Shown here piece after piece: positions 28,394-57,952 of a DNA stretch of 64,000 nucleotides; the stretch's first letter is position 1, and each line of letters opens with the position of its first letter. The DNA lies in the NCBI RefSeq assembly GCF_044324785.1, contig NZ_CP172127.1. The stretch is one strand, 5' to 3'. Made by a program: the position numbers and the translations under genes. The notes under the pieces were generated by a model, which was not told where the DNA came from, did not search any database, and saw only the letters and a program-made list of their open reading frames with translations. The stretch comes from Escherichia coli (GTDB lineage Bacteria > Pseudomonadota > Gammaproteobacteria > Enterobacterales > Enterobacteriaceae).

Positions 28394-29206
28394 ATGGCAA
28401 CAACACAACAATCTGGATTTGCACCTGCTGCATCGCCTCTCGCTTCGACCATCGTTCAGACTCCGGACGACGCGATTGTGGCGGGCTTCACCTCTATCCC
28501 TTCACAAGGGGATAACATGCCTGCTTACCATGCCAGACCAAAGCAGAGCGATGGCCCACTGCCAGTGGTCATTGTAGTGCAGGAAATTTTTGGCGTGCAT
28601 GAACATATCCGCGACATTTGTCGCCGTCTGGCGCTGGAGGGGTATCTGGCTATTGCACCTGAACTTTACTTCCGCGAAGGCGATCCGAATGATTTTGCCG
28701 ATATCCCCACGTTGCTTAGCGGTCTGGTAGCAAAAGTGCCTGACTCGCAGGTGCTGGCCGATCTCGATCATGTCGCCAGTTGGGCTTCCCGCAACGGCGG
28801 CGATGTTCATCGTTTAATGATCACCGGATTCTGCTGGGGTGGGCGCATCACCTGGCTGTATGCCGCGCATAATCCACAGCTAAAAGCCGCGGTGGCGTGG
28901 TACGGCAAGCTGACAGGCGATAAGTCGCTGAATTCACCGAAACAACCTGTTGATATCGCAACCGATCTTAACGCGCCGGTTCTCGGCTTATATGGTGGTC
29001 AGGATAACAGCATTCCGCAGGAGAGCGTGGAAACGATGCGCCAGGCGCTGCGGGCTGCTAATGCGAAAGCAGAGATTATCGTGTACCCGGATGCCGGGCA
29101 TGCATTCAACGCTGATTATCGCCCGAGCTATCATGCCGAATCTGCGAAAGACGGCTGGCAGCGAATGTTGGAATGGTTTAAGCAGTATGGTGGGAAGCGG
29201 AGTTAG
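28394..29206 (+). CDS. dlhH: Dienelactone hydrolase-family protein (YsgA/DlhH)
   Basis: ATG at 28394 (MATTQQSGFAPAASP...); alpha/beta hydrolase with GFCWGG nucleophile-elbow-like motif. Confidence 0.85.
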   Translation: MATTQQSGFAPAASPLASTIVQTPDDAIVAGFTSIPSQGDNMPAYHARPKQSDGPLPVVIVVQEIFGVHEHIRDICRRLALEGYLAIAPELYFREGDPNDFADIPTLLSGLVAKVPDSQVLADLDHVASWASRNGGDVHRLMITGFCWGGRITWLYAAHNPQLKAAVAWYGKLTGDKSLNSPKQPVDIATDLNAPVLGLYGGQDNSIPQESVETMRQALRAANAKAEIIVYPDAGHAFNADYRPSYHAESAKDGWQRMLEWFKQYGGKRS

Positions 29207-29598
29207 TTTCCTCTTAGTCTATATTTGAGATGGTGAGTGAACGAGTGCGTTTTGCTGCCATCTCTGTCCCCCAAAAAATAATCAGTATGAATTGATTGGA
29301 GATTACGACTCCGCTATTTGACCTTAAGAAAGTCGGCAAGTCATAGTCATAAATGAGTCTCTTCAATGGCAGACACCTTAGAGATTTACCATCAACTCCC
29401 ATTCACAAACAAACATTAATTATTATCAACACATTCACATTAATTATAAATCATCTCAGACCTTCCTGATAAAAAGATATTAAAGTGAAACATTTTGTTT
29501 TTCACATTTTAGTTCATCACTTTTAGGCGTAAATAAAGGTAAAAAAACAACAATACTATTTCTCTTTCACAAAAGAATTAACAAAAGGTTTTTCAAGG

Positions 29599-30747
29599 AT
29601 GAGTGATATTATTTACCTGAACATAACCGGAGAACAACAAGGATGTATTTCCTCTCGTTGTGGAACGAGCGCATCAATAGGTAATCGCTGGCAGATTGGC
29701 CATGAAGATGAAATCTTCGCGTTCTCGCTCTCTAATAGTATTACGAATACAGGCAAAGGGTCACAATTGCATGGCCTTAGTTTCTGTAAATTGATTGACA
29801 AAAGCTCCCCGTTACTTATTAACGCTATTAACAATAACGAGCAGTTGTTCATGGAGTTTGACTTCTATCGGATCAATAGATTTGGTCGATGGGAGAAATA
29901 TTACAACATTCAACTTCGCGGCGCGCTCTTATCAGCAATCAATCACCTGTTTACTGAGAACAATCTGGATACAGAAACCATCACTGTCAGTTATGAATAT
30001 ATACTCTCCAGGCATCTGATTGCTAATACTGAATTTAGTTATTTGGCATTTCCCGATAACTACAACCGTCTGTTTATACCACGGCCAAAAACTAAAGATG
30101 ATAATGGCCTCAAAACACTCAATAGTAAAGCGGTTGGCAGACTGCTTGCTGCTGGCGGCATATACAATGGGAATATCGAAGGATTCAGGGAAACAGCAAA
30201 CAAGTTGGGAGGAGATGCACCTGCTGGTTACGATCAAGTTATGGATAACAAAGGGTTACTCATCGCTGGTGCTTCAATAGTTGCTGGAGTTGTTCTGGGA
30301 AGAATGAGATTCCCTGATTTGGAATCACTTGAGCATTTCGGAGCCAGAGGAGCAGTATCAGGAAGACCATTTAATCCCGACCTTGCCGGTGGTCCAATAG
30401 AAAATCTGACGACAGATGGCGTAACAATCAACAGGGAAGGTATCGCTATTGTTGAAAAACACATAGCCAGATTTGGTCATGACCCTGTAAATGAAGTGAT
30501 GATCAATAGACTGAAAGACATTGAGAAAGGAAAAATCCCCCCAGAACAAGTAGATCTTAACTTCTATACTCATGAATGTCGGGAATATCAGCGTTACTGT
30601 AATCTTGGTTGGGAAACAGGACAACCTGATGGTGACGCAGGCTATGCACTCTGGAATCATACGCATACTGCTACTCTAGAAGATTATAAACTTAAGGGAG
30701 AACTTAATGACTTATACCACCAGGATGCACTTGACTATGATAACTGA
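29599..30747 (+). CDS. Hcp (T6SS tube protein, TssD) fused to a ~230-aa C-terminal extension; putative Hcp-ET-type effector, toxin domain unassigned
   Basis: 382-aa ORF with RBS AAGGA; N-terminal ~150 aa show Hcp1-family hallmarks (IYLNITGEQQG...TGKGSQLHGLSFCKLIDKSSPLLINAI...FMEFDFYRIN...EKYYNIQLRGA...TITVSYEYI); C-terminal part has no motif I recognise. Confidence 0.7.
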   Translation: MSDIIYLNITGEQQGCISSRCGTSASIGNRWQIGHEDEIFAFSLSNSITNTGKGSQLHGLSFCKLIDKSSPLLINAINNNEQLFMEFDFYRINRFGRWEKYYNIQLRGALLSAINHLFTENNLDTETITVSYEYILSRHLIANTEFSYLAFPDNYNRLFIPRPKTKDDNGLKTLNSKAVGRLLAAGGIYNGNIEGFRETANKLGGDAPAGYDQVMDNKGLLIAGASIVAGVVLGRMRFPDLESLEHFGARGAVSGRPFNPDLAGGPIENLTTDGVTINREGIAIVEKHIARFGHDPVNEVMINRLKDIEKGKIPPEQVDLNFYTHECREYQRYCNLGWETGQPDGDAGYALWNHTHTATLEDYKLKGELNDLYHQDALDYDN

Positions 30748-30982
30748 AACTGAAATTAACGTACTGAAAGTTATGGCTGAGAAAGATATAAACTGGAACT
30801 GGATGAATCTCGATCGCACACTATCTATAAGGCAAATTCCAGGATTCGGTAATGTTGTTAACATTGTTAACAAATTAGCTAACGAGGGTTTGGTTATTAT
30901 TGAGGATAGCGGACATAAGTCTATGCCTCACTACCACGTTACTGAAAAGGGATACAATCTCGTGAAAAGTGAGAATAAATAA
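30737..30982 (+). CDS. Small cytoplasmic protein, candidate cognate immunity protein (possible winged-helix fold)
   Basis: ATG at 30737 overlaps the 3' end of the Hcp-fusion gene by 11 nt (translational coupling); 81 aa, no signal peptide. Confidence 0.5.
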   Translation: MITETEINVLKVMAEKDINWNWMNLDRTLSIRQIPGFGNVVNIVNKLANEGLVIIEDSGHKSMPHYHVTEKGYNLVKSENK

Positions 30983-31128
30983 CGTAGCGTTGATTACTGA
31001 ACAAATCGCTCAGGATTATATTTTGCGAAAAAAATGATTCGGTTATTTCTGTGTCTGAACGGCCGCAGATAGCAAAATGGCTTCCGGTGATGGAAGCCAT
31101 CAGATTATTGGCAAAGTGCGTGTTGTTC

Positions 31129-31225
31129 ATGCCGGATGCGGCGTGAACGCCTTATCTGGCCAACTAAATCTTGAAAATTCAATAAATTGAAGAAATTATG
31201 TAGGCCTGGTATCAGGCAGTTTTGC
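31129..31225. repeat. REP/BIME palindromic units
   Basis: GCCGGATGCGGCGTGAACGCCTTATCTGGCC and GTAGGCCTGGTATCAGGC downstream of metE. Confidence 0.75.
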
Positions 31226-31268
31226 CTCTTTCATCGTACTGCAATTTACAGTGACTCGTTAATACTCA

Positions 31269-33530
31269 TCACCCCCGTCGCAAATTCTGCGCCGCCTGCA
31301 CCATGTTCGCCAGTGCCGCGCGGGTTTCTGGCCAGCCGCGCGTTTTCAGGCCACAGTCCGGGTTTACCCACAGACGCTCTGCCGGAATGCGTTTTGCCGC
31401 TTTCTTCAGCAGGGCTTCAATCCATTCCACGCTCGGTACGTTTGGCGAGTGAATGTCATAGACGCCTGGACCGATTTCATTCGGATAATCAAACTCTTCG
31501 AACGACTCCAGCAACTCCATGTCAGAACGCGAGGTTTCGATGGTGATGACGTCTGCGTCCAGCGCCGCAATCGAATCCATGATGTCGTTGAACTCGCAGT
31601 AACACATGTGAGTGTGGATTTGTGTGTCATCTTTCGCCACGGCGGCGTTGATACGGAAAGCCTCCACGCCCCACTGGAGATAGGCATCCCAGTCGCTGCG
31701 ACGCAGCGGTAAACCTTCGCGCAGTGCCGGTTCATCAATCTGGATGATGCCAATTCCAGCGGCTTCCAGGTCCGCCACTTCATCACGCAGCGCCAGCGCA
31801 ATTTGTTTGGCGATGGTTTCACGGCTGACATCTTCACGCGGGAACGACCAACAGAGTATGGTAACCGGCCCCGTCAGCATCCCTTTCACCGGTTTGTCGG
31901 TCAGCGATTGTGCATATTTCGCCCACTCCACGGTAATTGGTGCCGGGCGGCTAACGTCACCAATGACAATCGGCGGCTTCACGCAGCGGGAACCGTAGCT
32001 CTGTACCCAACCGTTTTGCGTAAAGACAAAACCGTCGAGATGCTCGCCAAAGTATTCCACCATGTCATTACGCTCGGCCTCGCCATGCACCAGCACATCC
32101 AGACCTAAACGTTCCTGCTCAACAATGGCCTGCTTGATATGTTCCGCAATGCCCGTACGGTAGTTGTTGGCGTCGAGATTACCCTTTTTGAAATCCAGAC
32201 GCAGGGTACGAATTTCCGTGGTTTGCGGGAAGGAACCAATCGTGGTGGTCGGCCACGCGGGCAGTTTAAAACGCGCACGCTGGGCTTCAGCACGCACTTC
32301 ATAGACATTCGCACGCTGACTGTCCTGGGCGGTGATCGCCGCCAGACGCTTTTCTACCGCCGGATTATGGACACGGGTAGAGTGACGACGCGCCTGAATC
32401 GGAGCGCTCCACTCTGCCAGAGCTGCCGTATCACCACTGTTCAGCGCATCGCGCAGTAGTGCCAGTTCGTGACATTTTTGTAGAGCGAAGGCAAACCAGC
32501 TTTTCACTTCTGCATCAAGACGCGTTTCCACGCTCAGGTCGATGGGGCTGTGCAGCAGTGAGCAGGAAGATGCCACCCACAAATCACGTTTGCCGACAAA
32601 GTCCTTAATTTGCGCATATTTCTCGGTAAGATCGGCGCGCCAGACGTTACGACCATTGATAAGACCCGCAGACAGTAGCCAGTCTGAAGGCAGACGCTTG
32701 TGCAGTTCAGCAACGTCATCTTTACCATGTACAAGGTCCACATGCAGCCCCTGAACAGGCAGCGCAGTAATCGTGTCGAGATTTGGCGTTACGCCTTCAA
32801 AATAGGTAGTCAGCAGCAGTTTCACCTGGCCCTGGAGCGCGTCGTAAGCGGGTTTGTATGCGTCCAGCCACGCCTGCGGCAGTTCCAGAACCAGCGCGGG
32901 TTCGTCGATCTGTACCCACTCAATGCCGCGTTTTGCCAGTTCTGCCAGCACTTGCTGATAAACCGGCAGAATGTCGTTCAGCAGGCTAAGGCGATCAAAC
33001 TGTTCACCTTTCACTTTACCCAGCCACAGGTAGGTAATCGGCCCCAGCAGCACAGGTTTCACCTTGTGGCCCAGCGCCAGCGCCTCGTCCACTTCCTCCA
33101 GCAGCTGCGTCCAGGTCAGTTTGAACTGTTGGCCTTTAACGAACTCCGGCACCATGTAGTGATAGTTGGTGTTAAACCATTTGGTCATTTCCGCTGCCGC
33201 CGCAGGTTCGCCAGTCGGTGCACGTCCACGACCAATACGGAACAGGGTGTCGATATCTACCGAACCATCGTTGTTCTGATGACGTGGCGGAACATTACCC
33301 AGCAGCAGACTGGTGGTCAGTACATGATCGTACCAGGCAAAATCGCCCACCGGCAGCAGGTCGATACCCGCTTGCTTTTGTTGATCCCAGTGACGAGCAC
33401 GCAATTCACGCCCTACTGCCAGCAGTTCTTCACGCGTGGAGTTCCCCGCCCAATAACTCTCTTGCGCTTTTTTCAGCTCGCGACGCAGGCCAACGCGAGG
33501 GAAACCGAGGGTGTGATTAAGAATTGTCAT
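31269..33530 (-). CDS. metE: Cobalamin-independent methionine synthase MetE
   Basis: 753-aa [30 protein letters not shown]... Confidence 0.95.
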
Positions 33531-40669: not shown

Positions 40670-41128
40670 TTAGCGTCTGGCTGGATAATGTTGGATGCTG
40701 GATTCCAGATTTGCCAGGATCAAAGCGACATCGGCATCCGCCAAACGAAATTCCGCCTGCCATATATTCTCTGACGTATGAAATGTAGGGCATAGCCCGC
40801 AAGCCAGTATCACTTTGATAATAATGACATCACCGGAATACCCTGTGTATTCGAACTCCAGGCATGGCTCGGTAAATTCCAGATTTTTCTCCGGGTAGCC
40901 ATCGGGAGAAGGGCGCTGCAACAATGTGGTAAACCACCTATGAAGCTTTGTTAAGTCATATGTCCCTATTGCCGGATCTATCTTTTCAAACCGCTGATTT
41001 CCCTGCGTCACGCCCACTTTGAGGAATAACCAGTTACCATCCCAGAAATTACTGGCATCAGGATACTGATACCCCATAACATCCAGCGTCAAAGTAACGG
41101 CCAGCTCACTATTGCTTAACGTAATCAT
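40670..41128 (-). CDS. Hypothetical 152-aa cytoplasmic protein between pldA and recQ
   Basis: Intact ORF with ATG start, no obvious SD, own terminator; no recognisable motif. Confidence 0.5.
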   Translation of the reverse strand: MITLSNSELAVTLTLDVMGYQYPDASNFWDGNWLFLKVGVTQGNQRFEKIDPAIGTYDLTKLHRWFTTLLQRPSPDGYPEKNLEFTEPCLEFEYTGYSGDVIIIKVILACGLCPTFHTSENIWQAEFRLADADVALILANLESSIQHYPARR

Positions 41129-48407: not shown

Positions 48408-49310
48408 ATGAAAAAAACGCTCGCAACGTTATTTTTATTAACGTGTCTGGGATCATCATCCGCTTATGCGGATAACGCTTTGATTTTACAAACTGATTTT
48501 AGCCTGAAAGATGGTGCCGTCTCGGCGATGAAAGGGGTCGCATTCGGTGTTGACCATAATCTTAAAATATTTGATTTAACACACGAAATTCCACCGTATA
48601 ACATCTGGGAAGGCGCTTACCGCCTGTATCAGACCGCCAGTTACTGGCCGCAAGGTTCGGTATTTGTCAGTGTGGTCGATCCTGGTGTTGGTACAGACCG
48701 TAAATCGGTAGTGCTGAAAACCAAAAACGGTCAATACTTCGTTTCACCAGATAACGGTACGCTCACTTTGGTGGCACAAACTCTGGGTATTGATAGCGTC
48801 CGGGAAATCGACGAAAAAGCTAACCGCCTGAAAGGTTCTGAAAAGTCATATACCTTCCACGGTCGTGACGTGTATGCCTACACCGGTGCGCGTCTGGCTT
48901 CCGGGGCGATTACGTTCGAACAGGTGGGGCCAGAGCTTCCTGCAAAAGTTGTCGAACTTTCTTATCAGAAAGCAAAAGCAACAAAAGGTGAAGTGAAGGG
49001 CAATATCCCGATTCTCGATATTCAGTACGGCAACGTCTGGAGCAATATCAGCGACGAGTTGCTGAATCAGGCAGGAATCAAACTCAACGACACGTTGTGT
49101 GTGACCATTTCCGAAGGTTCCCAGCAAAAATACGCAGGGAAAATGCCGTATGTCGCAAGCTTCGGCGATGTGCCGGAAGGCCAGCCGATGGTGTATCTGA
49201 ACAGCTTGTTGAATGTTTCCGTGGCGCTGAATATGGATAATTTTGCGCAGAAACATCAGGTTGCGTCTGGTGCTGACTGGAATATTGATGTGAAGAAGTG
49301 CGCTAAGTAA
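48408..49310 (+). CDS. Secreted DUF62-family protein (SAM hydroxide adenosyltransferase/halogenase-like fold)
   Basis: Signal peptide MKKTLATLFLLTCLGSSSAYA; motifs TDFSLKDGAVSAMKGV, DLTHEIPPYNI, VVDPGVGT, VSPDNG resemble the DUF62 family as I recall it. Confidence 0.65.
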   Translation: MKKTLATLFLLTCLGSSSAYADNALILQTDFSLKDGAVSAMKGVAFGVDHNLKIFDLTHEIPPYNIWEGAYRLYQTASYWPQGSVFVSVVDPGVGTDRKSVVLKTKNGQYFVSPDNGTLTLVAQTLGIDSVREIDEKANRLKGSEKSYTFHGRDVYAYTGARLASGAITFEQVGPELPAKVVELSYQKAKATKGEVKGNIPILDIQYGNVWSNISDELLNQAGIKLNDTLCVTISEGSQQKYAGKMPYVASFGDVPEGQPMVYLNSLLNVSVALNMDNFAQKHQVASGADWNIDVKKCAK

Positions 49311-54978: not shown

Positions 54979-55166
54979 TATGGATTGCCTGTAAAGTTCA
55001 TCGCTTTCTGCTTTCTATCATCGCAGGAGAAGGCGTAAAAGCAAGCGTTTAGCGACTCTTTATGAAGTCTGAAAAGTGAGGAAATGCTGCGAGTATAACG
55101 CTTACTCGTGGGGATTTATGTTTTGCTGGTAGTTTCGTGATCGGCACCTCGCGCCAGGATGGCTTT

Positions 55167-56645
55167 ATGCACTATCGCAATGTGGTTTGTTTGTTGTCTT
55201 GTTCGTTGTTTTTATCGTCGGCATGGGGATGTCGGCTTTCCGCGCCTGAACATAATATTTACCAGAAACAGGGAAAAGGCGTGGTATACCTGCGCCCTTA
55301 TAAAGAAACAAATCTTTCTCTTCCTGACGTGAATTACAAAAGTTTGCGTCGGTTACCCAATTTATTAATAGACCCGACAACACTAGACGAATGGGATAAA
55401 GAACCGCCTCTGACTGATTTGACAACCGACTACCTCTATGAAGGCGCACAGGCCTGGTATCCTCATTACTCCTGGCATAGCGATGGTCGCTATATCCTTT
55501 ACGCGGGTGAAGTTGTGCAAAACCCGCCAGACAAACCTCCCGTCGATGTCGCCTCGTTCAAGGCGTGGGGTGATTTTGCCGCAGATAAACACAGTCTCTA
55601 TTTCGAAGGCAAGCGCACCGATAACAATGGCGGGGGAAATAGCTTAGATATCAAAACACTGCATCAGGTGGAATTCCGGCCTCCCTGGAAACCTGACTTA
55701 CTGGGGCTGATATTACGTGACGCTAATTTCTTATATATCAATGGGCATCGCCTCGCTGACCCCGAGAGTTTCCGTGTGCTGGCGCAGAAGTCCTGGGATC
55801 AGCGAGGAAAGTTTTCTACCGCGTTTAATCCCTGTGTGGCTATGCCATTTGGCCCCTGGGATACCCTGGCTCGTACACGGACCAAAATCCTGATCAACGG
55901 CGAACAGCTTGATGCCGACCCGGACACCTTTTCCGTCGTGCGCTGGATGCCCGGCTCACTCTTGACCTGGCGTGATAAAAACGGGCTACAGCGTAAAGTC
56001 CTCGACAAGGAAAATCTGGCGTGGGATGAAGATTTAACAAAGCACTGTCTGGATTTTTCTCTGCTGGAAAAGAAAGTGTTCTGGCGTAAAGGGCCTGACT
56101 GTAAACAGGAAGAGTTACCGGGGCTCGATCCTGAACAGTTCCACCCCATCAGTGATGCTGTCGCCCAGTATCAGGATTCGCTTTATACCATCATCGAAAC
56201 AGAGTCTGGTGACCGCAAGCTGGAGATCGTGAAACTTGATGATCCCAATCTTATTATCAACAAACGTTTCAACGCCGGGAAACGCCACGGCTATTTACTT
56301 ACGCGTGCCGAAGGGTGGCCATACCATTCCGGTTTACACGTGTTTGAATCTGACGGACCGCTGATCTTACTGGATAACCGCTCTCCGGATGAACGCGAAG
56401 CCCATCTTAATGACCATCCCTTTTTGCGCAGATGGTATGCCCGCGATAACCGCTACATTTACAGCTTTGATGGCGCGCAGCTCTGGCGATACCGCATCGC
56501 TGATCCGAAACAAGTTCGCTTAATCTGGAAGGAACAACATTCGGGATATGGCTATGGCGTAAATTACAAAACGGGATATCTGGACGGAAAAATTACTGAT
56601 GACGGCGAATTTATTCCTGCCCCGCGCAATGAGGCGACAAAATGA
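55167..56645 (+). CDS. Secreted DKNYY-repeat family protein, paralog 1
   Basis: Signal peptide then repeated D-x-N/H-x-hydrophobic-Y-hydrophobic-x-G motifs (DKHSLYFEGKRT, DANFLYINGHRL, DNRYIYSFDG); an upstream GTG at 55137 is an alternative start. Confidence 0.65.
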   Translation: MHYRNVVCLLSCSLFLSSAWGCRLSAPEHNIYQKQGKGVVYLRPYKETNLSLPDVNYKSLRRLPNLLIDPTTLDEWDKEPPLTDLTTDYLYEGAQAWYPHYSWHSDGRYILYAGEVVQNPPDKPPVDVASFKAWGDFAADKHSLYFEGKRTDNNGGGNSLDIKTLHQVEFRPPWKPDLLGLILRDANFLYINGHRLADPESFRVLAQKSWDQRGKFSTAFNPCVAMPFGPWDTLARTRTKILINGEQLDADPDTFSVVRWMPGSLLTWRDKNGLQRKVLDKENLAWDEDLTKHCLDFSLLEKKVFWRKGPDCKQEELPGLDPEQFHPISDAVAQYQDSLYTIIETESGDRKLEIVKLDDPNLIINKRFNAGKRHGYLLTRAEGWPYHSGLHVFESDGPLILLDNRSPDEREAHLNDHPFLRRWYARDNRYIYSFDGAQLWRYRIADPKQVRLIWKEQHSGYGYGVNYKTGYLDGKITDDGEFIPAPRNEATK

Positions 56646-57952
56646 AGGGTCAAATAATCACAGTTGCACTCATCCTGTTGGGGCACACATTTCTGACACC
56701 TGCTGTACAGGCCATAGAGTTCGACTATTACAATGATCACGGTGTCATGTCTTACGGTAAAGGTTATTGGGGGGATAAGAAAATCATTGCCCAATTTCCG
56801 AAGATGAACAGGGCCGATTTGCGCCTTGTGAAAAATATATCCGGGGAGACGGATTATATACCTTCCGATGAAATGAGCATAAAAAATGAGGAATACCACT
56901 GGGTGACAGACGGCCACGTTATTCTCTGGCGTGGCAAAATCGTTAGCAATCCACCGGGAACACCCACTGTCGATATTGCCAGCTTTCAGGCTATGGGCCG
57001 CTTCGCGGTCGATAAATATAGCCTCTATTTTGACGGACAGCGCACCGAAAGTAATAGCGGCGCGTCACGTGTTGATCTGGCGACACTAAAAGCTATCGAA
57101 GGTAACTCTACCACGCTGGTGGATAGTAAAAATCTCTACTTGTCCGGTAGACGTCAGGGGAGCAGCAGTAATGTTACTGTATTAGAAAAAAGATGGTGGG
57201 GTATTAATCCACGTCTTATGAGTGTAAACAGAAATTTGTATTCCAATGATCTGCTTATCCGCAGTGGGCAGAATATTTATTTAAATGGCGTTCACCTTAC
57301 GGCGAATGCAGACTCATTTGAGATAATTCGCTGGATACCTCATTCACTGCTGGTTTTTCGCGATAATAAGGGTATGCATCGTTATCCCTTTGGGCAATTG
57401 TCTGGCAAAGCGATACCCGTAGATGATGACGTCTCTTTTGAAGTAGGAGAAAGTCGCGTTCGCTGGCGTAAACAGCTCACGCCCGACCGTCAGTGGAGCA
57501 AGTGGATAGACCTACCAGGTATTGAACCTGAACAATTCCATCTGATTACTGGCAATATTGCGCAATATAAAGATCGGTTGTATGTAACAAAATTATCGAC
57601 ATTTGGTGAAGACCAGCTTGAGATAATCCCGCTGGATACGCCAGACCTGGTCATTGATCGCTCATTTAATAGCGGCAAACAGCATGCTTATTTTATCCGC
57701 CAATTACGGTCAAAGAGCGTGCAAATTATTCCAGTTAACGGTCCGCTAACTAAAAACGATCGCTTCGCTTATGACGATCGCAATGTTTATACATGGACCG
57801 ATACAGAGGTAAGGATTACGCCCTCCCCCTGCCCGGCGAAAACACGCGTCAGAGAAGAGAATGTGCGTGAACTTCACAACAGAGACATTATTATTCCGTT
57901 GACGGATGAATCATGCCAGAACGCAGCAGACGAGCAAACTTTGAAGCCCTGA
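56642..57952 (+). CDS. Secreted DKNYY-repeat family protein, paralog 2
   Basis: Start overlaps paralog 1 stop (ATGA); signal peptide ...LTPAVQA; collinear similarity to paralog 1 (GKIVSNPPGTPTVDIASFQAMGRFAVDKYSLYFDGQRT vs GEVVQNPPDKPPVDVASFKAWGDFAADKHSLYFEGKRT). Confidence 0.65.
   Translation: MKGQIITVALILLGHTFLTPAVQAIEFDYYNDHGVMSYGKGYWGDKKIIAQFPKMNRADLRLVKNISGETDYIPSDEMSIKNEEYHWVTDGHVILWRGKIVSNPPGTPTVDIASFQAMGRFAVDKYSLYFDGQRTESNSGASRVDLATLKAIEGNSTTLVDSKNLYLSGRRQGSSSNVTVLEKRWWGINPRLMSVNRNLYSNDLLIRSGQNIYLNGVHLTANADSFEIIRWIPHSLLVFRDNKGMHRYPFGQLSGKAIPVDDDVSFEVGESRVRWRKQLTPDRQWSKWIDLPGIEPEQFHLITGNIAQYKDRLYVTKLSTFGEDQLEIIPLDTPDLVIDRSFNSGKQHAYFIRQLRSKSVQIIPVNGPLTKNDRFAYDDRNVYTWTDTEVRITPSPCPAKTRVREENVRELHNRDIIIPLTDESCQNAADEQTLKP

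Follow-up and report, generated by a model that had tools for sequence, protein, structure and literature searches.

Evolved Hcps, in which the tube protein of type VI secretion systems (T6SS) continues into a C-terminal extension, were described in 2009 (PMC2907695), and Hcp-ET effectors are established according to second-hand descriptions of Ma et al. (2017), in which Hcp-ET1 is an Hcp fused to an HNH DNase. The end of Escherichia coli YhhZ has been described as a degenerate HNH / colicin-DNase domain (PMC2907695, PMC5714182). In Citrobacter koseri, the T6EC4/T6IC4 system comprises an orphan Hcp with an unannotated C-terminal domain, reported to be Tox-REase-5/TseT-like, which is toxic in the E. 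coli cytoplasm and which the gene downstream neutralises (Geller et al. 2024, PMC11148199). PCN033, a porcine strain of extraintestinal pathogenic E. coli (ExPEC) which has a functional T6SS, carries hcp3, a 1149-bp open reading frame (ORF) far from the T6SS cluster, whose product is Hcp-like in its first half and without homology in its second (Peng et al. 2016, PMC4882540). Here we describe the orthologue of hcp3 in a 64,000-nt stretch of E. coli chromosome (contig NZ_CP172127.1 of assembly GCF_044324785.1; hereafter 'the window'), where it lies between ysgA (dlhH) and metE and encodes 382 aa.

Comparative analysis makes it probable that this gene and the small gene following it constitute an intact Hcp-ET-type toxin–immunity module, with an Hcp-plus-linker carrier, an exchangeable C-terminal toxin and an 81-aa immunity protein. 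The evolved Hcp architecture, the gene itself (knocked out as hcp3) and its common locus are already known; no description of the toxin family or of the immunity family was found in Pfam, NCBIfam, the PDB, the T6SS literature searched or the displayed toxin-table entries of Zhang et al. (2012).

Architecture of the Hcp fusion protein

The features of the gene and its downstream neighbour, with positions in the window, are as follows.

29599..30747, plus strand: Hcp-ET ('evolved Hcp') gene, PCN033 hcp3 orthologue; intact, 382 aa, ATG start
29599..30048, plus strand: Hcp/TssD tube-protein domain, residues 1-150; TIGR03344, PF05638 and PDB Hcp chains
30049..30327, plus strand: linker/pre-toxin region, residues 151-243; ~93 aa, conserved
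30328..30744, plus strand: predicted C-terminal toxin domain, residues 244-382; 139 residues, without Pfam family or solved relative
30460..30744, plus strand: allele-specific toxin tip, residues 288-382, delimited by divergence from the LH85-a allele
30460-62 (H288), 30553-55 (D319), 30571-76 (H325-E326), 30583-85 (E329), 30652-54 (W352) and 30664-66 (H356), plus strand: codons of residues invariant in the family
30737..30982, plus strand: candidate immunity gene, 81 aa, 246 bp; also annotated by RefSeq here

The initial annotation, made from the DNA letters, had proposed an ORF at 29599-30747 with an Hcp1-type N-terminus and an extension of ~230 residues. The ORF is real, and residues 1-147 match TIGR03344 (TssD/Hcp1) far above chance, with 124.9 bits where the curated cut-off lies at 58.9 (E=2.9e-36); the Hcp domain also matches Pfam T6SS_HCP (PF05638, E=4.9e-14) and solved Hcp structures (best 6a2v, E=7.6e-15; also 3he1), and its residues 1-150 are 77% identical to K-12 YhhZ. 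Beyond the Hcp domain lie 232 residues, where evolved Hcps are recognised by at least 120 (Geller et al. 2024). The extension of ~230 residues is not a single unit, dividing into the ~93-aa linker (151-243) and the 139-aa predicted toxin (244-382).

The linker, which is common to YhhZ up to about residue 230, contains a glycine-rich hydrophobic helix at residues 218-236 (30250-30306; Kyte-Doolittle mean ~2.0 over 17 residues). In Cronobacter, Atlantibacter and Pantoea, linker and toxin together stand behind DUF8093 (PF26362) or an unnamed ~140-aa N-terminal domain. We infer a role for the linker in loading or translocation.

A predicted toxin domain common to several delivery systems

A profile of the C-terminal module, searched against 1.84 billion representative proteins, retrieved 688 clusters at E≤1e-3, 162 of them at E≤1e-30. 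Nearly all 688 match only the last ~130 profile positions (~75-207), at their own C-termini, and carriers of the domain reach 5214 aa. It lies behind PAAR N-termini (P0125, P0130, P0170), behind Rhs/YD repeats (P0140, P0161) and behind WXG100 domains of the type VII secretion system (T7SS; P0133, P0169), one of which adjoins an EspC/WXG100 gene. In the bacteriocin P0232 the domain comes directly after Pyocin_S (residues 493-622, E=7.6e-26) and is followed by an overlapping 89-aa gene, and Foldseek against AFDB50 returned many relatives that by name are S-type pyocins or colicin-like bacteriocins (pyocin/cloacin translocation), together with one ferredoxin-domain relative from Pectobacterium. 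The names 'Colicin-D' and 'Klebicin D' carried by AFDB relatives probably stem from their N-terminal parts.

This is the pattern of a polymorphic toxin as defined by Zhang et al. (2012): one C-terminal domain on PAAR, Rhs/YD, WXG100, Pyocin_S, DUF8093 and Hcp carriers and, conversely, a common carrier with unrelated C-termini (YhhZ, and the tandem or alternative Hcp-ETs at a Citrobacter locus). The C-terminal domain is very likely a toxin, and the suggestion of the initial annotation that the protein is an Hcp with a C-terminal toxin extension gains comparative support from the occurrence of the same domain at the end of PAAR, Rhs, WXG100 and S-type pyocin proteins.

Across an alignment of 62 family sequences that are 40–59% identical to the window protein, seven columns are invariant (H288, D319, H325, E326, E329, W352 and H356), all seven being present in the window protein, and R291, F292, R304, Y323, R328, R332, Y333 and N353 are nearly so. 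An AlphaFold model of residues 152-382 from 40 close homologues had a pLDDT of 47.8 and was not used; the model of the last 139 residues, from the diverse alignment of 62 sequences, had a pLDDT of 96 and is mostly α-helical, with H325, E326 and E329 on one long helix and W352, N353 and H356 on the next. The family is acidic, with a median pI of 5.5 and a value of 4.9 for the window protein.

Pfam-A gave no match for the window protein besides T6SS_HCP, even at E≤10, in agreement with the earlier view that the extension has no HNH or lipase signature; the 62 members gave no Pfam match at E≤0.001, and the few at E≤0.1 were to unrelated families. HNH and colicin-DNase models were matched neither by the window protein (E≤10) nor by the 62 members (E≤0.1), and the Pfam models of killing domains (HNH DNase, pyocin S3 DNase, colicin E3 rRNase, colicin D/E5 tRNases) were likewise unmatched in those members. 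NCBIfam and PADLOC searches of the toxin domain returned no match, the toxin profile had no sequence match in the PDB, and the AlphaFold model had no structural neighbour there. Separate searches of the extension, as had been recommended, gave no match to a characterised non-toxin domain (Pfam, NCBIfam, PDB), and the proposal of an uncharacterised toxin family, without Pfam, NCBIfam or PDB match and without a solved structural neighbour, is supported. Among the displayed entries of the toxin table of Zhang et al. (2012), none has the combination H / D / HExxE / WNxxH; the motif does not fit Ntox28 or Ntox32, the nearest all-α entries displayed.

The candidate immunity gene downstream

The ATG of the 81-aa gene overlaps the toxin ORF by 11 nt, and an alternative in-frame start lies at 30707. 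Homologues of its product occur directly downstream of distant relatives of the toxin: in Cronobacter behind a DUF8093-type toxin (62% identical), on a metagenome contig behind a PAAR toxin (24% identical), and behind a WXG100 toxin, where the similarity (29% identical) is to the N-terminal 75 residues of a 236-aa protein. Behind a second PAAR toxin there is a 25-residue fragment at a contig end, which resembles the PAAR-linked protein and not the window protein directly. The E-values of these homologues come from a tiny database and overstate significance, and the pattern they share is consistent. The family follows the toxins across phyla, with downstream homologues in four contexts, an orphan copy in LH85-a and loci that hold immunity genes only. 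The 81-aa gene is likely an immunity gene because its homologues stand directly 3' of distant toxin relatives and because it co-varies with the toxin tip. Winged-helix matches of the 81-aa protein were not significant (Lrs14, E=0.021; HTH_45, E=0.072).

Alleles, distribution and decay in E. coli

Of 5426 complete E. coli genomes, 848 have a related locus encoding an Hcp fusion, and 118 have the window-type toxin tip. The LH85-a protein is identical to the window protein at 286 of residues 1-287 but only 63% identical over residues 288-382; 3' of the LH85-a toxin lie an 85-aa immunity homologue (63% identical) and then an orphan copy sharing 88% identity with the immunity protein of the window. 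Read from the sequences, this pattern is the classical footprint of the replacement of a toxin tip together with its immunity cassette.

At five of the eight E. coli loci inspected the toxin is damaged and the downstream small gene or genes are intact (N3, Nissle 1917, AH21G053, STEC 2015C-3107 and CFSAN061768). Strain N3, the nearest complete genome, differs over the 2.4 kb compared by a 1-bp deletion and one substitution, and its copy is a frameshifted pseudogene, whereas that of the window is intact. In CFSAN061768 the toxin gene has been removed by an IS1-associated deletion. Only fragments of the protein are present in a Shigella sonnei cluster named 'IS1 orfB' and in UniProt entries from UTI89, APEC O1 and Shigella.

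In Nissle 1917 and AH21G053 (L020, L003) the Hcp-ET pseudogene follows hxlB-ptsG (with tkt in AH21G053) and not ysgA; the toxin is interrupted by an internal stop, W98* in the case of AH21G053, and both downstream immunity-type genes are intact in both strains. These loci presumably belong to the B2-type 16-kb metE..ysgA region of PMC12928451.

RefSeq names the genes at this locus inconsistently, intact genes being called 'TssD' and C-terminal fragments 'colicin' or 'HNH endonuclease' (L001, L003, L007, L019; H88-H128); one truncated homologue of the 85-aa immunity type is labelled 'MarR family transcriptional regulator'. Neither the nuclease nor the MarR names at the locus have profile support.

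Comparison with described systems

A sensitive DNA search found a second locus, the match being confined to the linker-coding part, in 3864 of the 5426 E. coli genomes, K-12 and B strains among them. In a derivative of K-12 W3110 the gene at this locus comes after yhhW-yhhX-yhhY and was identified as yhhZ (yhhZ-yrhA, L013:2990-4581). The window protein is 73% identical to YhhZ over residues 1-230 and has no similarity to it thereafter, the C-terminus of YhhZ matching HNH (E=0.013) and Col-Pyo_DNase (E=1.9) weakly. On this alignment the window gene and K-12 yhhZ are paralogues with swapped toxins. In Citrobacter and Salmonella salamae, the window toxin type occurs with an 86-89-aa downstream gene at yhhX-yhhY/ggt, which is the yhhZ locus of E. 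coli.

L016:3501-4899, L017:608-4899 and L018:3501-4903: Citrobacter/Salmonella loci with the toxin type and the 86-89-aa gene

Two distinct Hcp-ETs stand in tandem in one Citrobacter genome; several small genes come after the first, and one of these has an Imm35 match.

YhhZ is probably of the Hcp-ET1 type, to judge from second-hand descriptions of Ma et al. (2017). Both YhhZ/Hcp-ET1 and the window system have the Hcp-plus-linker carrier (73% identical), an orphan locus and a small downstream gene; they differ in that YhhZ ends in a degenerate HNH domain and the window protein in a helical domain bearing H, D, HExxE and WNxxH, and in that YrhA, encoded downstream of YhhZ, is unrelated to the 81-aa protein. 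Identity of the window protein with Hcp-ET1 was rejected: it has no HNH match, and strain 55989, which in the same second-hand accounts carries Hcp-ET1, is without the ysgA-metE insert. S-type pyocins and nuclease colicins are built of receptor-binding, Pyocin_S translocation and cytotoxic domains, with an immunity gene, and many bacteriocins resemble the window system in ending with its domain after Pyocin_S and before a small overlapping gene, but they rely on a receptor and Tol/Ton import where the window protein has an Hcp carrier, and the cytotoxic domain of the latter matches none of the Pfam models of the known nuclease killing domains. With T6EC4 the window protein shares an orphan Hcp bearing an unannotated C-terminal domain and a neutralising downstream gene, demonstrated in their case and predicted in ours. 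In contrast, Tox-REase-5 was not among the best 50 AFDB50 hits, all of which were members of the window family, and Tox-REase-5 (PF15648) had no Pfam match in the 62 members. It is unlikely that the window protein is T6EC4, from which it is set apart by the published description of T6EC4 and not by its sequence.

In PCN033, the intact 1149-bp tssD gene at the same ysgA-metE locus encodes a product identical to the window protein at 379 of 382 residues and is followed by the same 246-bp gene. What differs is the interpretation, Hcp3 having been treated as an Hcp paralogue, with the toxin domain and the immunity gene unrecognised and with phenotypes that were host-related rather than antibacterial (PMC4882540). 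The hcp3 deletion took the whole 1149-bp ORF and therefore also the first 11 nt of the immunity gene, including its ATG (overlap at 30737-30747 in the window; L012:3268-3278). This loss matters for the design of sibling-competition experiments with the published mutant.

Genomic context

The local gene order is rmuC-udp-ysgA(dlhH), insert, metE-metR, and the insert and its edges have the following features.

29198..31270, no strand assigned: low-GC insert, ~2.07 kb, 39.3% GC, by blastn against K-12
29207..29598, plus strand: upstream intergenic region, AT-rich (~30-34% GC), presumed site of the hcp-ET operon promoter
31125..31207, no strand assigned: REP-type repeat, naRNA4-like (minus strand) with an ES036-like stretch adjoining, at the metE-proximal edge of the insert

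Colinear homology to K-12 in blastn stops at 29197 and restarts at 31271, and GC content falls from 52–54% in the flanks to 39.3% in the insert. The genes ysgA and metE had been given as nearly adjacent in K-12, and the spacer there is indeed 39 bp (38 bp in 55989); the insert, which replaces this ~39-bp spacer, is of low GC as proposed but slightly larger, at ~2.07 kb, than the ~1.9 kb given by the initial annotation. The recommended synteny comparison of the junction showed a low-GC insert that is variable among E. coli and absent from K-12 and 55989, which at the frequency given above fits the proposed orphan locus.

T6SS core genes were not seen in the window, as had been stated, the span 9192-54317 being colinear, save for small islands that were also examined, with a T6SS-free region of K-12, and the ends being judged by ORF layout only; we infer that the layout at the ends fits the K-12 mobAB/rRNA and cyaA/hemCD gene order. 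Seven promoter-like matches were seen where 5.9 were expected in shuffled sequence, so that no specific promoter was established, and the signal of a terminator scan was not above shuffled sequence. The REP-type repeat was detected by Rfam at E=0.003 and 0.00035, both under the gathering score, and on account of this repeat at the metE edge the region around it has a median of 12 matching places per E. coli genome. The antisense ORFs at 29214-29402 and 30939-31130 were without any family match and were treated as chance ORFs.

Elsewhere in the window, further segments were noted.

55137-57952: two genes that overlap (502 aa and 436 aa), between dapF and cyaA
44857-46199: YPO3983-family gene (TIGR03034, E=6.5e-131) and a 163-aa ORF adjoining corA, in a stretch without alignment to K-12
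40670-41128, minus strand: 152-aa ORF in a ~450-bp recQ-pldA insert absent from K-12; no NCBIfam/PADLOC match
48408-49310: 300-aa gene in a ~1-kb yigE-uvrD insert

The 502-aa and 436-aa proteins had no NCBIfam or PADLOC match at E≤0.01; between dapF and cyaA, K-12 presumably has small genes only. The 163-aa ORF sits where 55989 has a DUF943 gene beside YPO3983, a correspondence by position only, and the 300-aa protein is similar to (R)-S-adenosyl-L-methionine hydrolases, with a score under the curated cut-off (NF058624, E=3.8e-38).

Proposed mode of action

By analogy with the published Hcp-ET effectors, which are known second-hand, we propose that a T6SS encoded elsewhere in the genome would load the Hcp fusion into its tube and fire it into neighbouring bacteria. 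The toxin would act in the cytoplasm of the target, since T7SS substrates carry the domain and it also comes after the Pyocin_S translocation domain, a typical component of nuclease bacteriocins. The toxin may be a metal-dependent hydrolase: the metal would be held by H325 and E329, spaced by one turn of the helix, and by H356 and/or H288, and E326 would be the catalytic base, an arrangement analogous to, though not the same as, the HExxH...E site of zincins (HExxE here). The immunity protein would block the toxin by direct binding.

As to the substrate, a nucleic acid seems unlikely and a protein more so, while something other than either has about an even chance. A nucleic acid would suit the bacteriocin context; what speaks against a non-specific nuclease is the acidic charge together with the lack of any nuclease fold. 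Tentatively, and with the odds somewhat against it, the 139 residues may represent a new enzymatic toxin family with a fold unseen in solved structures and an activity outside the known bacteriocin nucleases (for example, a metal-dependent protease or other hydrolase), which would act on a cytoplasmic target conserved from Proteobacteria to Actinobacteria, be delivered by T6SS (Hcp, PAAR, Rhs), T7SS and colicin-like bacteriocins, and always be accompanied by a small winged-helix-like immunity protein.

Alternative interpretations

Several observations weigh against an active antibacterial module. The window holds no T6SS gene; the toxin is a pseudogene or deleted at the five damaged E. coli loci, which suggests weak selection for it; its acidity is unusual for a non-specific nuclease; and deletion of hcp3 in PCN033 caused no significant loss of K-12 W3110 killing, in which Hcp2 dominated (PMC4882540). 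The last of these would also fit a virulence factor aimed at the host, or an Hcp variant of structural role, that aids invasion and intracellular survival, with an unrelated small regulator downstream, as the 'MarR family transcriptional regulator' name that RefSeq sometimes gives to the downstream family would have it, and the hcp3 mutant indeed showed lowered invasion of PK-15 cells, which was complemented, intramacrophage replication at 60.6% of the parent and lowered colonisation of mouse organs (PMC4882540). We nevertheless regard this explanation as quite unlikely. The killing assay used one prey strain under one condition and is a weak negative because Hcp2-dependent killing dominated it; S-type pyocins and T7SS WXG100 proteins both have this domain as their killing end, the contigs of the latter being of uncertain origin and without a known link to an animal host; and the downstream family, whose winged-helix matches fall short of significance, goes with the toxin from one delivery system to another and varies in step with it. 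A host-directed role could exist as an additional effect, but as the main role it sits poorly with the evidence from pyocins, the T7SS and immunity.

The absence of T6SS genes from the 64 kb and the frequency of toxin pseudogenes beside intact immunity genes are also what would be seen if the gene were an inert leftover in this genome, intact but undelivered, either for want of a compatible T6SS or through silencing of the AT-rich locus, and kept mainly for immunity. K-12 and E. coli B, which are not known to have a T6SS, likewise keep the paralogue yhhZ. Against this, the ORF is intact with every family-invariant residue retained, any decay in N3 must be recent given how little separates it from the window, and the nearly identical PCN033 gene has phenotypes that can be complemented, in a strain whose T6SS is functional (PMC4882540), so that we consider an inert leftover unlikely. 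A C-terminal DNase of the HNH or colicin type, as the RefSeq names on fragments of the same allele, the weak matches of YhhZ and the second-hand description of Hcp-ET1 might lead one to expect, is highly improbable: HNH and colicin-DNase matches are lacking at the thresholds given above, the helical model has no ββα metal finger, similarity to YhhZ ends at about residue 230, 55989, said in the second-hand accounts to carry Hcp-ET1, has nothing at ysgA-metE, and the domain is acidic. A toxin–immunity module carried by an evolved Hcp remains the preferred interpretation.

Implications

The architecture being well known and the locus common, the finding counts as incremental until the domain's activity is demonstrated. 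If the interpretation is correct, the RefSeq names at the locus ('colicin', 'HNH endonuclease', 'MarR family regulator' and plain 'TssD') would be misleading, and hcp3 of PCN033 would be a toxin–immunity module and not a spare tube protein, so that its virulence phenotypes would have to be re-read. The family would offer a structure predicted with high confidence, seven residues as candidates for catalysis and an evident immunity partner, and the allele pairs of E. coli would suit studies of specificity. More broadly, a single uncharacterised killing domain would be common to three weapon systems, the T6SS, the T7SS and the S-type bacteriocins.

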